64,000 bases of DNA from Escherichia coli (GTDB lineage: Bacteria; Pseudomonadota; Gammaproteobacteria; Enterobacterales; Enterobacteriaceae), in NCBI RefSeq assembly GCF_003334785.1, contig NZ_QOWV01000015.1; one strand, given 5' to 3'. Positions 50,000 to 53,038 of this stretch are shown piece by piece. The notes beneath the pieces are model-generated. The model had not been told where the DNA came from, made no database searches, and was given only the letters and a program-made list of their open reading frames with translations. The position numbers were made by a program, and so were the translations under genes. The stretch's first letter is position 1, and every line of letters begins with the position of its first letter.

Positions 50000-50791
50000 A
50001 TGGCTAACGCAGATCTGGATAAACAGCCTGATTCTGTATCTTCCGTGCTAAAAGTTTTTGGCATTTTGCAGGCGCTGGGTGAAGAGCGCGAAATAGGGAT
50101 AACCGAGCTGTCGCAGCGCGTCATGATGTCAAAAAGCACCGTTTATCGCTTTTTACAGACCATGAAAACCTTAGGTTATGTGGCGCAGGAAGGGGAGTCG
50201 GAGAAATATTCCCTGACCCTGAAATTGTTTGAACTGGGCGCTCGCGCGTTACAAAACGTCGATTTAATTCGTAGCGCAGATATCCAGATGCGTGAGCTCT
50301 CCCGCCTGACCAAAGAAACTATCCACCTCGGCGCACTGGACGAAGACAGTATTGTTTACATTCACAAAATTGACTCTATGTACAATTTGCGCATGTATTC
50401 ACGGATTGGGCGTCGTAATCCGCTGTACAGCACCGCGATTGGTAAGGTACTGCTGGCATGGCGCGATCGCGATGAAGTGAAGCAAATTCTTGAGGGCGTG
50501 GAGTATAAACGCAGTACCGAGCGGACCATCACCAGTACAGAAGCGTTATTACCCGTTCTGGACCAGGTGCGCGAGCAGGGGTATGGCGAAGATAATGAAG
50601 AGCAGGAAGAAGGGCTGCGATGCATTGCGGTACCGGTATTTGATCGCTTTGGCGTGGTCATTGCCGGTTTGAGCATCTCCTTCCCGACGTTGCGTTTCTC
50701 TGAAGAGCGTTTACAGGAATATGTCGCAATGTTGCATACCGCAGCGCGCAAAATTTCTGCCCAAATGGGTTATCACGACTATCCGTTCTGA
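50000..50791 (+). CDS. kdgR: KdgR, IclR-family transcriptional repressor
   Basis: 263-aa ORF with IclR HTH ITELSQRVMMSKSTVYRFLQTM. Confidence 0.9.
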   Translation: MANADLDKQPDSVSSVLKVFGILQALGEEREIGITELSQRVMMSKSTVYRFLQTMKTLGYVAQEGESEKYSLTLKLFELGARALQNVDLIRSADIQMRELSRLTKETIHLGALDEDSIVYIHKIDSMYNLRMYSRIGRRNPLYSTAIGKVLLAWRDRDEVKQILEGVEYKRSTERTITSTEALLPVLDQVREQGYGEDNEEQEEGLRCIAVPVFDRFGVVIAGLSISFPTLRFSEERLQEYVAMLHTAARKISAQMGYHDYPF

Positions 50792-50800
50792 TGAGAGTAA

Positions 50801-50838
50801 GAACCTGTCGGAATATCAAACAGACAGGTTCTTTATTT
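50801..50838 (+). terminator. intrinsic terminator after kdgR
   Basis: gaacctgtcggaatatcaaacagacaggttc plus T-rich tail. Confidence 0.7.
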
Positions 50839-50934: not shown

Positions 50935-51174
50935 TTAACCATTATCGACCACGATATTGCTTTTGCGTAACAGCGGGCAATCTGTTATCCCCAAAAAACC
51001 ACTTTTAGTGTGCAAGTATTGTACCGTGCTGGTGCCTCTGGCAGTCAGATAGGTACATTGCAAACCTAATCCTGCGGCATTCTCTTTGCTTCCAATCAAA
51101 ACGCCATATCCGCTGAGTAATAATCCTATCCAGACCAGTGCTATCAGCATAACTGTGCGAATGATGAATCGCAT
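50935..51174 (-). CDS. yobH: YobH, small secreted/membrane protein
   Basis: 79-aa ORF MRFIIRTVMLIALVWIGLLLSGYGV... with hydrophobic N-terminus. Confidence 0.7.
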   Translation of the reverse strand: MRFIIRTVMLIALVWIGLLLSGYGVLIGSKENAAGLGLQCTYLTARGTSTVQYLHTKSGFLGITDCPLLRKSNIVVDNG

Positions 51175-51276
51175 TACAACCTCTTCTCTTTTTATGTTCG
51201 CTTAATCGTAGCGGCAATATGCGCTGAAGCAAGCGACTCATTCCGAAAAAGCACGAATATCGACATAGTTAGGCGC

Positions 51277-51303
51277 TGTTTAACTAACGCATGCTAGTTT
51301 AAT
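51277..51303 (+). promoter_or_regulatory. putative PhoP box and -10 element of mgrB promoter
   Basis: TGTTTA-actaa-cgcatg (half-site 2 degenerate) then TTTAAT about 30 bp upstream of the mgrB start; recall-based. Confidence 0.35.
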
Positions 51304-51332
51304 GACATAAGGTAGGTGAAACGGAGATTGGA

Positions 51333-51476
51333 GTGAAAAAGTTTCGATGGGTCGTTCTGGTTGTCGTGGTGTTGGCTTGCTTGCTGCTTTGGGCGCAGGT
51401 ATTCAACATGATGTGCGATCAGGATGTACAATTTTTCAGCGGAATTTGTGCCATTAACCAGTTTATCCCGTGGTGA
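51333..51476 (+). CDS. mgrB: MgrB, 47-aa membrane peptide, negative feedback regulator of PhoQ
   Basis: GTG-start [50 protein letters not shown] read by eye; below the track's 60-aa cutoff (track shows only a spurious minus-strand ORF). Confidence 0.8.
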
Positions 51477-51550
51477 TATCATTTTTTCAGCACTAGATTT
51501 TCTTCCTCTCCAGCAGTGGTAGAATAGCGCCTCTACTCAGAGGTGGTGAA

Positions 51551-51838
51551 ATGAACGAAGTTGTAAATTCAGGCGTGATGAACATTGCGTCTTTGGTTGT
51601 ATCGGTGGTGGTTCTTCTTATCGGGCTCATCTTGTGGTTTTTTATCAATCGTGCCAGTTCACGGACTAACGAACAGATTGAACTGCTTGAGGCGTTGCTG
51701 GATCAGCAAAAACGTCAAAATGCACTGTTACGTCGTTTGTGCGAAGCAAACGAACCAGAGAAAGCAGATAAAAAGACCGTTGAGAGTCAAAAATCGGTTG
51801 AAGACGAAGATATTATTCGTCTGGTCGCCGAACGATAA
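51551..51838 (+). CDS. yebO: YebO, small membrane protein
   Basis: 95-aa ORF MNEVVNSGVMNIASLVVSVVVLLIGLILWFF... Confidence 0.7.
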   Translation: MNEVVNSGVMNIASLVVSVVVLLIGLILWFFINRASSRTNEQIELLEALLDQQKRQNALLRRLCEANEPEKADKKTVESQKSVEDEDIIRLVAER

Positions 51839-52507
51839 TCCTTCCTCAATCTTGAGTAACCCCGTCGTTGAAGGGTTACTCAATTCATCCTGATTATACG
51901 CACTGTCATGGTGCAACTGCTTCAAATTAAAACTCTGGTCTGACTTCAAATAATTATCATATTATTTATTTGCGTAACGGGATATCAGAAAAAGATATTT
52001 ACCCCATTAATTTATTAGGATGTTTACATCGGATTTGTGATTAAGCGTGGTATTATTTATTAGCGAAACGTTTCTCTCTTGATTTTTTTGCTCATTCATC
52101 AATTTTTCTTATTTTAAATTTACAATCCCTTTGGGGATTGACTTCTCTTTAGGGTAATTAATAGCCGTTAACTGACTGTTTTATGAGAAAAAGTGATATA
52201 ACTTTTTATTCATTGCATAGCAAAAAATGTGATATTGCACGCACTATGTAATAACTTCTCCCACTGGCCTGGAACAACTGAACTTATTGAACTATGTTAG
52301 AAAATACGCCAGTTTAAGTATCTGCCTGAACTGGCAAGGTTAAGCACAATGATATATCGGCGCGTATTCCGTTGCATAAGTGTGCAAAAAAAGTGGAAGA
52401 CGTATCGAGATTTGTGCGTCTGATCGAGACATGTTTAAAAATGGCTTGCCATAATTAACGTTGTATGTGATAACAGATTTCGGGTTAAACGAGGTACAGT
52501 TCTGTTT

Positions 52508-52651
52508 ATGTGTGGCATTTTCAGTAAAGAAGTCCTGAGTAAACACGTTGACGTTGAATACCGCTTCTCTGCCGAGCCTTATATTGGTGCCTCATGCAGT
52601 AATGTGTCAGTTTTATCTATGTTATGCCTGCGGGCGAAGAAAACAATCTAA
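52508..52651 (+). CDS. yobF: YobF, 47-aa small stress-induced protein
   Basis: [53 protein letters not shown] read by eye; 12 bp upstream of cspC; below track cutoff. Confidence 0.7.
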
Positions 52652-52663
52652 GGAATTTTTCAA

Positions 52664-52873
52664 ATGGCAAAGATTAAAGGTCAGGTTAAGTGGTTCAACG
52701 AGTCTAAAGGTTTTGGCTTCATTACTCCGGCTGATGGCAGCAAAGATGTGTTCGTACACTTCTCCGCTATCCAGGGTAATGGCTTCAAAACTCTGGCTGA
52801 AGGTCAGAACGTTGAGTTCGAAATTCAGGACGGCCAGAAAGGTCCGGCAGCTGTTAACGTAACAGCTATCTGA
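52664..52873 (+). CDS. cspC: cold-shock-domain protein CspC
   Basis: 69-aa [40 protein letters not shown]... with RNP1 motif. Confidence 0.95.
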
Positions 52874-52919: not shown

Positions 52920-52947
52920 AAGCCTCGTCGAATGCGAGGCTTTTTAC
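52920..52947 (+). terminator. intrinsic terminator after cspC
   Basis: aagcctcgtcgaatgcgaggcttttt. Confidence 0.8.
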
Positions 52948-53038
52948 TATGCTTTATCTTCGCTCCTGGCGTTCGGATATTTGCCCGCCGCGTGATTCGC
53001 GTTACACTTGCGGCCTTTAGTATCCTGCCGGAGTTGTC

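Follow-up and report, generated by a model that had tools for sequence, protein, structure and literature searches.

The five small genes yobH, mgrB, yebO, yobF and cspC, located within about 2 kb of the 64,000-nt stretch of Escherichia coli DNA analysed here (the window), are real but form an already annotated E. coli cluster, of which mgrB and cspC are well studied. The interval is very probably organized as kdgR/yobH/mgrB-yebO/yobF-cspC/rlmA, comprising three independent transcription units and no further conserved protein-coding ORF. The first-pass annotation had described five small ORFs of 47-95 aa within about 2 kb, and the ORF listing bore out their positions and lengths; the gene names given there are also right, as they match the MG1655 RefSeq genes and the family models. 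The genes and their left flank are as follows:

50000-50791, plus strand: kdgR (b1827), 263 aa, left flank, taken from the ORF listing
50935-51174, minus strand: yobH (b4536 in MG1655), 79 aa
51333-51476, plus strand: mgrB (b1826), 47 aa, GTG start
51551-51838, plus strand: yebO (b1825), 95 aa
52508-52651, plus strand: yobF (b1824), 47 aa in E. coli
52664-52873, plus strand: cspC (b1823), 69 aa

Two of them, mgrB and yobF with 47 aa each, do escape detection with a 60-aa ORF cutoff, and the membrane or signal character proposed for several products is visible in the translations as an N-terminal hydrophobic segment in YobH, MgrB and YebO. The equivalent MG1655 interval (NC_000913.3 1,907,226-1,909,164) has identical genes, order, lengths and start codons, and all seven proteins encoded from kdgR to rlmA are identical (100%), except for the GTG start of mgrB, which the six-frame translation reads as Val, producing an apparent mismatch. 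MG1655 numbering runs opposite to the orientation of the window; otherwise there is no substantive difference. A 2.4-kb stretch covering the locus was found in all 5426 of 5426 complete E. coli genomes, many of them being 100% identical to the window over its length.

In regard to the density of small genes, 11 of the approximately 68 CDS annotated in the 64-kb window are of 100 aa or less, and five of these 11 are in the cluster. By our own rough estimate, 0.1-0.3 runs of five small genes are expected per genome if about 0.1-0.16 of all genes are small and each is placed independently of the others, an assumption that does not hold for real small genes. Finding two proteins of at most 50 aa in the same 2 kb is not unusual, as about five such 2-kb bins arise by chance if the approximately 150 genes of this size (PMC11429745) are distributed over 4.64 Mb. 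Stronger evidence than these density statistics is provided by conserved gene order. The order kdgR-yobH-mgrB-yebO-(gap)-yobF-cspC is retained wherever the retrieved DNA reaches in 80 Enterobacteriaceae loci, with kdgR amino-acid identity of 92-99% in nearly all of them and 83% in Cedecea davisae. Because every far-reaching locus has the same order, the arrangement is inherited rather than a local fluctuation and, judging from this comparison, is at least as old as the common ancestor of the Enterobacteriaceae sampled.

Most relatives carry two further genes which the window lacks: an MBL-fold hydrolase gene (331 aa) between yebO and yobF, present in 33 retrieved loci, one of them in Serratia, and a PBP3 paralogue (589 aa) between cspC and rlmA, present in 54. 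Their absence partly accounts for the high density in E. coli, where the five genes fit into 2 kb. Remnants of either gene were sought in the E. coli yebO-yobF gap, and nothing meaningful was found. Co-transcription of all five genes is at odds with the position of yobH on the opposite strand and with the 669-bp spacer, containing a promoter-like site, in front of yobF, and relatives with a 1-kb gene inserted between yebO and yobF also speak against a single operon.

A coding-type signature, that is, variation at third codon positions, few non-synonymous changes and a stable length, was found for yobH, mgrB, yebO and cspC, and not for yobF. The first unit would consist of yobH alone, on the minus strand, with its product carrying an N-terminal signal or anchor segment. 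YobH matches Pfam PF13996 (E=3e-44), its conservation at the three codon positions (0.74/0.91/0.41) follows a coding pattern, and its ORF has 77-80 codons in 79/80 loci. Between the convergent kdgR and yobH, the following element was read from the sequence:

50800-50832, no strand assigned: hairpin AGAACCTGTC...GACAGGTTCT followed by TTTATTT

This hairpin is probably a terminator; its stem columns are partly conserved, and the remainder of the 143-bp kdgR-yobH spacer is E. coli-specific.

The second unit would be mgrB-yebO, transcribed from a PhoP-dependent promoter. MgrB scores 89.9 bits with the NF007635 equivalog model (cut-off 40), residues 1-47 covering model positions 1-47, that is, the full length. 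Its codon-position conservation is of the coding type (0.77/0.95/0.60), and the ORF has 47-48 codons in 79/80 loci and a GTG start in 79/80. The sequence elements of the unit are listed below:

51266-51282, plus strand: PhoP-box-like direct repeat TAGTTA-GGCGC-TGTTTA upstream of mgrB, in highly conserved columns
51517-51525, plus strand: extended -10-like sequence TGGTAGAAT, a conserved block in the 74-bp mgrB-yebO spacer
51540-51547, plus strand: yebO ribosome-binding region GAGGTGGT, in near-invariant columns

We take the repeat at 51266-51282 to be a putative PhoP box, the consensus of which is (T/G)GTTTA-N5-(T/G)GTTTA. MgrB is a membrane peptide that binds and inhibits the PhoQ kinase in a feedback, and mgrB is activated by PhoP (PMC11429745). 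With its NF007635 match, PhoP-box-like repeat and 47 aa, mgrB of the window is a canonical member of this MgrB-PhoQ feedback system, which belongs with small membrane regulators such as MgtS and PmrR; the likeness holds for only one of the five genes.

Genes mgrB and yebO reportedly share one transcript (PMC5861431), and TGGTAGAAT is a possible internal yebO promoter. YebO has 918 homologous clusters, those listed carrying PF13974, an assignment precomputed on clusters 99-100% identical to YebO. The protein is single-pass, with a membrane helix at the N-terminus and a charged helical tail behind it, and the gene shows coding-type codon-position conservation (0.76/0.88/0.46) and 92-99 codons in 80/80 loci. 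YebO was also considered as a GspM homologue and rejected, the match reaching only 16 bits against a cut-off of 60. Furthermore, sequence comparison revealed that the yebO ribosome-binding region GAGGTGGT is complementary to ACCACCUC of the small RNA CyaR, from which we infer that CyaR may pair at this site. In a CyaR pull-down, mgrB was enriched 339-fold and yebO 93-fold, and yobF was recovered as well (PMC5861431), while a yebO-CyaR chimera was reported by RIL-seq (PMC7815308). Duplex prediction between full-length CyaR and the translation-initiation regions was uninformative, giving loosely paired long duplexes whose z-scores mostly stayed in the noise range, and what supports the proposed pairing is confined to the 7-8-nt complementarities seen in the sequences and to the published pull-downs.

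The yebO-yobF spacer separates this unit from the third one and has the following features:

51839-52409, no strand assigned: AT-rich, fast-evolving spacer without a conserved ORF and with a few conserved blocks
52060-52078 (contains GAAACGTTTC), 52096-52115, 52210-52232, 52270-52305 and 52372-52387: conserved blocks of the spacer

Even inside Escherichia, the spacer is only 76-80% identical. A gSELEX peak of RpoN/NtrC has been reported in it (PMC8743547), and an Rfam search of the spacer returned no sRNA at E <= 1.

It was also proposed in the first-pass annotation that unannotated micro-ORFs may hide in such a cluster, and the conservation analysis, a check suggested there, gave none. We consider it unlikely that further translated micro-ORFs are present, the candidate places being the 669-bp AT-rich spacer, alternative frames of the yobF leader (52461/52467-52538, 23-25 codons) and an antisense frame (52435-52518). 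Many short ORFs do exist in the interval, and initiation at short ORFs is reported to be pervasive across the E. coli genome (Table S1 of 10.1101/2021.07.02.450978). In our analysis, 38 E. coli ORFs of at least 8 codons in the 669-bp yebO-yobF gap were followed through 45 aligned loci, by a test which cannot detect young or strain-specific translated ORFs. ORFs lying beyond the invariant block 52410-52540 are each intact in at most 7/45 aligned loci, and most of them are broken even in three other Escherichia species. A few gap ORFs are "intact" in 30-44/45 loci, which would favour additional genes, but the DNA that holds them all is invariant whichever frame or strand is read, which makes their intactness uninformative. 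In Serratia, Rouxiella and Brenneria, the frames in the invariant block are disrupted by a 1-nt indel or early stops. The candidates 52461-52538 (plus strand), 52414-52458 (plus strand) and 52435-52518 (minus strand) were rejected on both of these grounds. Elsewhere between the genes, conservation is limited to short blocks interpretable as promoters, ribosome-binding sites and terminators, and no additional gene is annotated in the interval in the MG1655 RefSeq record, which does include the later-added small genes yoaL (b4751) and yobI (b4677) in the same window. The 21-aa yobI was considered for the yebO-yobF gap and dismissed, as it is actually located at 1,946,115, between ruvA and yebB.

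The third unit would be yobF-cspC, in which a leader of about 200 nt holding the yobF ORF precedes the gene of the abundant RNA chaperone CspC. An operon of these two genes has been described (PMC10965054, PMC13162491). Its elements in the window are the following:

52410-52663, plus strand: near-invariant promoter and leader of yobF-cspC, with nearly all columns above 90% identity in 75 loci
52426-52455, plus strand: promoter-like GAGACA-18-CATAAT, inside the near-invariant block
52625-52636, plus strand: small hairpin (U/C)GCC-loop-GGCG within the 3' portion of yobF and just ahead of the cspC ribosome-binding site
52920-52948, plus strand: cspC intrinsic terminator AAGCCTCG-loop-CGAGGCTT followed by a T run, conserved and matched by the RF01766 3' terminal hairpin

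CspC, a soluble cold-shock-domain protein and RNA chaperone, scores 170.2 bits with NF008190 (cut-off 137), compared to 145 with the CspE model and 117 with the CspA model. The gene has 69 codons in 75/75 loci, an amino-acid identity of 100% in all but one locus (99%) and codon-position conservation of 1.0/1.0/0.84. It is known to be expressed constitutively rather than upon cold induction. The near-invariance of the DNA in front of it extends further than the family, since approximately 52440-52600 is still nearly invariant in Serratia, Rouxiella and Brenneria, where no yobH, mgrB or yebO was called within 1.5 kb upstream of yobF-cspC.

The yobF-cspC transcript matches Rfam RF01766, the cspA thermoregulator, over the whole model (positions 1-428) with 135.5 bits, the gathering threshold being 78. 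What the two have in common is the coding part and the terminator, along with a small GCC...GGC hairpin that lies before the ribosome-binding site; in the alignment, the window hairpin at 52625-52636 falls on the GCCgaaaGGC element of the model. Both cspA and cspC also have a long conserved leader ahead of a cold-shock-domain gene. On the other hand, over the cspC 5' leader the posterior probability of the alignment is low and many of its pairs are non-canonical, and because of this poor alignment the score comes mainly from cspA/cspC coding similarity. Moreover, what RF01766 aligns as a structured 5' leader corresponds in cspC to a leader that harbours the translated yobF ORF. The leader of the paralogous cspE is neither homologous to that of cspC nor does it have a yobF-like ORF, and the leader is thus not a general feature of cspC/cspE.

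The small gene within this leader is the one for which the nature of selection is in question. YobF matches DUF2527 (PF10736, E=2e-30), a model of only 38 positions. Conservation at its three codon positions (0.92/0.94/0.93) is devoid of periodicity. The ATG is retained in 75/75 loci and the N-terminal 24 residues are nearly constant, yet the length of the ORF ranges from 15 to 56 codons, with 47 codons in just 27/75 loci, and in many genera nonsense and frameshift variants occur after codons 14, 24, 31, 38 and 43, while the adjoining small genes keep their length. Synonymous and non-synonymous variants number 5:23, or 5:19 without indel-bearing sequences (ratio 1.03); these small counts (24-28 variants) fit neutrality, and an omega of 0.3 is rejected with p = 0.001-0.007 (p = 0.007 for 5:19). 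The hairpin at 52625-52636 keeps its stem in 27 genera, with variable loop sequence and length, and indels at the hairpin and just upstream of it shift the yobF frame. The ORF lies in the leader of the cspC transcript directly upstream of the main gene, as an upstream ORF does, with a gap of 12 nt, and its stop codon and the cspC Shine-Dalgarno sequence overlap (TAAGGA, 52649-52654).

From the lack of periodicity, the nearly neutral 5:19, the length range of 15-56 codons and the Pfam model stopping at residue 38, together with the near-invariance in other Enterobacterales families and the Salmonella trans result described below, we infer that yobF conservation could reflect selection on the nucleic acid, namely the promoter and the cspC leader RNA, and not on the YobF peptide. 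We therefore tentatively give a nearly even chance to the reading that yobF, a textbook case of a validated E. coli small protein, is conserved as part of an approximately 250-nt cspC promoter/leader shared across Enterobacterales and not as a protein, the peptide function in E. coli being a lineage-specific addition. According to this leader model, yobF would be translated as a leader ORF, but its peptide would evolve neutrally, and indels around the small hairpin would let the 3' end of the ORF drift. The selected object would be the leader RNA, with a predicted Shine-Dalgarno-sequestering helix (52491-97/52587-93) and sRNA pairing sites, and Csp autoregulation could perhaps also act through it. 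Against the model, structure prediction gave no unusual stability for the leader fold (MFE z = +0.2), and the leader alignment gave no covariation support.

Alternatively, yobF could be an ordinary conserved small-protein gene, where overlapping RNA signals and normal protein selection together give uniform conservation; we regard this as a serious possibility, with somewhat less than an even chance of being correct. YobF is translated and the tagged protein is membrane-associated, and an E. coli yobF deletion causes a low-Mg2+ growth defect that a plasmid complements only if the start codon is intact (PMC11429745). The invariant ATG, the existence of a Pfam family and the near-constant N-terminal 24 residues also agree with a protein gene. 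However, selection on a protein predicts that non-synonymous changes are rarer than synonymous ones, which is not what the 5:19 count and the ratio of about 1 indicate, and stops and frameshifts accumulate in many genera next to neighbours of stable length. In Salmonella, yobF supplied in trans fails to correct the defect of a yobF deletion in ugtL expression, and the deletion is polar on cspC (PMC8599858), a polarity from which effects of translation and of the RNA cannot be told apart. The leader reading, for its part, has to face the start-codon-dependent complementation, the membrane association, the small counts and the scattered distribution of the 47-aa form over Escherichia, Salmonella, Citrobacter, Cedecea and Buttiauxella, a form which may be ancestral and functional.

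As a leader ORF, yobF would be comparable to mgtL, located before mgtA, and STM14_1939, located in the ugtL leader, which are likewise short ORFs in a 5' leader directly upstream of the main gene. Its peptide sequence is without detectable selection and its stop overlaps the cspC Shine-Dalgarno. In contrast to those two, yobF has no obvious sensor codons, control of cspC by its translation is only hypothetical, its termination site relative to cspC is not conserved, and the E. coli peptide reportedly functions in trans (PMC11429745).

Several regulatory links connect the units to each other. [quoted passage not shown] The units share some post-transcriptional inputs, CyaR acting on mgrB-yebO and yobF and OxyS on yobF, and have a loose common theme of Mg2+/PhoPQ and stress without co-transcription of the whole block. 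The fact that CyaR targets two of the units, together with the PhoPQ/Mg2+ links, gives a hint of functional coherence. A stronger version, in which the five genes constitute a functional island devoted to envelope and Mg2+/PhoPQ stress and kept together by selection for co-regulation, appears rather doubtful. It would accommodate PhoP-activated mgrB inhibiting PhoQ and the rise of YobF in low Mg2+ (PMC11429745), the promotion of PhoP activation by CspC in Salmonella (PMC8599858), the recovery of mgrB, yebO and yobF with CyaR (PMC5861431) and the same gene order throughout the 80 loci. Nevertheless, gene order is generally stable at such phylogenetic depth without any selection, the promoters are separate and the strands opposite, and relatives tolerate an unrelated 1-kb gene between yebO and yobF. 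Furthermore, yobH, mgrB and yebO were not called close upstream of yobF-cspC (within 1.5 kb) in Serratia, Rouxiella and Brenneria, and YobH and YebO have no assigned function or partner.

The cluster itself adds nothing new, every gene being already annotated. It represents a clean negative control for the notion that small-gene clusters hide more small genes, since no additional one was indicated by conservation among 80 related loci. At the same time, yobF suggests how conservation-based discovery of small ORFs can mislead, its near-invariance across a bacterial order arising, as it seems, from a constrained leader RNA; checks of codon-position conservation, synonymous versus non-synonymous changes and ORF length expose ORF conservation driven by a leader. 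If the leader reading of yobF is true, this RNA would be the target for understanding the control of cspC, which matters for the stress response, for PhoP activation in Salmonella and for the recurrent loss-of-function mutations in ageing cultures.

The interval from kdgR to rlmA holds five small-protein genes, whose names, lengths and coordinates in the first-pass annotation proved exact against the ORF listing, the annotation of MG1655 (the E. coli K-12 reference; b numbers are its gene identifiers) and family searches. Two of them, mgrB and yobF at 47 aa each, do fall under a 60-aa ORF cut-off. The seven genes occupy 50.0-53.9 kb, with orientation reversed relative to MG1655:

50000-50791, plus strand: kdgR (b1827)
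50935-51174, minus strand: yobH, 79 aa (b4536; YobH family search agrees)
51333-51476, plus strand: mgrB, 47 aa, GTG start (b1826; MgrB family search agrees)
51551-51838, plus strand: yebO, 95 aa (b1825; YebO/PF13974)
52508-52651, plus strand: yobF, 47 aa (b1824; YobF/DUF2527)
52664-52873, plus strand: cspC, 69 aa (b1823; CspC family search agrees)
53039-53848, plus strand: rlmA (b1822)

Many E. coli chromosomes match the 2.4-kb stretch at 100% identity, and all 5,426 complete genomes contain it. As stated, the five-gene cluster is already known, being made of annotated genes of which two are well studied, and the K-12 annotation is its nearest known description. In the listed RefSeq E. coli genomes PGAP names cspC 'cspE', a naming inconsistency; the product scores 170 bits with the NCBIfam model for CspC and 145 bits with that for CspE.

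Eleven of about 68 CDS annotated in the 64-kb window encode 100 aa or fewer, and five of the 11 are in this cluster. By a rough estimate that assumes independent placement, a run of five small genes is expected about 0.1-0.3 times per genome, and two proteins of at most 50 aa within 2 kb are not unusual, since the E. coli genome carries around 150 such genes (PMC11429745). Evolutionary conservation of gene order is better evidence for a non-random cluster than this chance estimate: 80 loci were collected across Enterobacteriaceae species by way of a YebO alignment, and all that reach far enough have their genes ordered kdgR-yobH-mgrB-yebO-(gap)-yobF-cspC. Part of the density is peculiar to E. 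coli, which lacks two larger genes of its relatives. A 331-aa MBL-fold gene lies between yebO and yobF in 33 fetched loci (32 of the 80 and a separately fetched Serratia; for example L014, 4309-5304), and a 589-aa PBP3 (FtsI) paralogue lies between cspC and rlmA in 54 (for example L057, 5518-7287). Neither is present in the window, and no remnant of either was found in the yebO-yobF gap. Among the database entries, the fetched record of 'Chryseobacterium sp. 18061' (L009) contains a full enterobacterial locus, and public protein records place YebO under Staphylococcus succinus and Vagococcus and YobF under Pseudomonas lundensis (P0015, P0100, P0166); records with such implausible organism names are probably contaminated or mislabelled.

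In regard to expression, the interval consists of three transcription units that have some of their regulators in common, and is neither an operon nor one system; co-transcription of all five members was tested and did not hold, so the cluster belongs to no multi-gene system. The conserved direct repeat TAGTTA-N5-TGTTTA (51266-51282), 5' of mgrB, resembles the PhoP-box pattern. mgrB is activated by PhoP, and its product inhibits PhoQ (PMC11429745). Its frame is truncated in one of the 80 loci, having only 35 codons in the type-strain assembly of Enterobacter mori LMG 25706 (L034, about 3783-3923), which may reflect a natural mgrB defect of this strain or a mistake in the assembly. mgrB and yebO reportedly share one transcript, and pull-down of the sRNA CyaR gave 339-fold for mgrB, 93-fold for yebO and 38-fold for yobF (PMC5861431; see also PMC7815308). 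Different stretches of CyaR are complementary to the ribosome-binding region of yebO, GAGGTGGT (51540-51547), and to GGTACAG of yobF (52493-52499), and may pair with these sites. OxyS represses the yobF-cspC operon, acting near the Shine-Dalgarno sequence of yobF (PMC10965054). Three promoters are reported for this operon, and ageing colonies are said to have a mutational hotspot there, with IS and point mutations (PMC13162491). In line with this hotspot, IS1, IS2, IS5 or IS10-like insertions occur in the 2.4-kb stretch in several assemblies of laboratory strains; the two that were checked are an IS1 that a W3110 assembly has at the 5' end of yobF (L083, 2093-2790; about 52500 in the window) and an IS5 between yobF and cspC in strain AS19-RrmA- (L084, 2221-3201; about 52655).

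The first-pass annotation, sound in its description of the genes, had also expected such a small-gene cluster to hide unannotated micro-ORFs, and this was not borne out by conservation in two scans. One collected the ORFs of at least 10 codons that lie between kdgR and cspC in each locus, to see which of those in E. coli turn up again elsewhere; the other took every ORF of at least 8 codons in the 669-bp yebO-yobF gap, nested starts included, and tested in 45 aligned loci whether start, frame and stop survive. Gap ORFs outside the block 52410-52540 are intact in 7 of the 45 loci at most, and the majority are lost even in the three other Escherichia species; within the genus the gap is only 76-80% identical. 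Inside it, the ORFs at 52461/52467-52538 and 52414-52458 (plus strand) and 52435-52518 (minus strand) were rejected, as each column of this DNA exceeds 90% identity, which makes every frame on both strands look conserved; in Serratia, Rouxiella and Brenneria all three are broken, by early stops or a 1-nt indel. yobF starts with AUGUG (52508-52512) and is among the listed AUGUG-start genes (PMC9841429); the GTG-started frame of 8 codons (52512-52538) is likewise invariant only because the DNA is. MG1655 RefSeq annotates nothing further in the interval, though the later-added yoaL (b4751) and yobI (b4677) are present in the window. Non-conserved translation events in the interval are possible.

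The other conserved intergenic blocks, all short, look like promoters, ribosome-binding sites and terminators. The block 52060-52078, conserved in the 46 loci with a short yebO-yobF gap, contains a perfect 10-bp palindrome, GAAACGTTTC (core 52065-52074), presumably a candidate LacI/GalR-type operator with a Cra- or PurR-like core. Upstream of the yobF promoter-like site, 75 loci show at least 90% conservation of TTGCATAAGTGTGCAA (52372-52387), which has the inverted repeat TTGCA/TGCAA. For the yebO-yobF spacer, a gSELEX peak of RpoN/NtrC is reported (PMC8743547). Further downstream, the region 5' of mntP (54542-54638, minus strand) matches RF00080, the Mn2+ riboswitch model, at 41.6 bits, just under its gathering score of 45.

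Codon-position conservation across loci gives a clear coding signature for yobH (0.74/0.91/0.41), mgrB (0.77/0.95/0.60) and yebO (0.76/0.88/0.46) and marks CspC as an extremely constrained protein (1.0/1.0/0.84), ORF length being stable in all four. In yobF, the three positions are equally conserved (0.92/0.94/0.93). All 75 loci have its ATG, but only 27 have the 47-codon ORF; elsewhere nonsense changes and frameshifts leave 15, 24, 32, 38, 43, 48, 55 or 56 codons, a spread also seen among annotated YobF family members, and the Pfam YobF model covers 38 residues only. Frame changes at the C-terminus cluster around a small hairpin, (U/C)GCC-loop-GGCG (52625-52636), whose stem is kept while the loop varies. 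Distinct variants in codons 1-36 number 5 synonymous and 23 non-synonymous (5:19 with indel-bearing sequences removed, a per-site ratio of 1.03); these counts fit neutrality, and omega = 0.3 is rejected (p = 0.001-0.007). Across 75 loci there is hardly any change in 52410-52663, which spans the promoter-like site, the 5' UTR and yobF; conservation here exceeds that of the synonymous sites in cspC, and much of the stretch is still invariant in Yersiniaceae and Pectobacteriaceae.

Selection may therefore act on the DNA and RNA of the cspC promoter and leader, with yobF as a translated ORF inside, a reading to which we give slightly less than an even chance. In Salmonella, the yobF deletion whose phenotype was examined is polar on cspC and yobF in trans brought no correction (PMC8599858), and yobF-cspC has been highlighted as an extreme example of genes in one operon differing in translation efficiency (10.1101/109264), both consistent with a leader ORF. 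The E. coli deletion argues against it, having a growth defect in low Mg2+ that yobF in trans complements only if its start codon is intact, as does tagged YobF, which fractionates with membranes (PMC11429745). In the leader RNA, RNAalifold predicts pairing of the yobF Shine-Dalgarno sequence GAGGUAC (52491-97) with GUGCCUC (52587-93); all columns of this helix are invariant and thus give no covariation evidence, and the fold of the single sequence is of ordinary stability (z = +0.2). The Rfam cspA-thermoregulator match (135.5 bits) comes mainly from the coding part and terminator, the leader part aligning poorly, and the cspE leader is unrelated to that of cspC. The long cspA leader and the near-invariant yobF-cspC leader are alike in principle, though homology is not demonstrable. 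None of the papers cited here for the locus describes yobF as a leader ORF; yobF as a translated ORF in a near-invariant Csp leader is possibly a refinement of the known picture.
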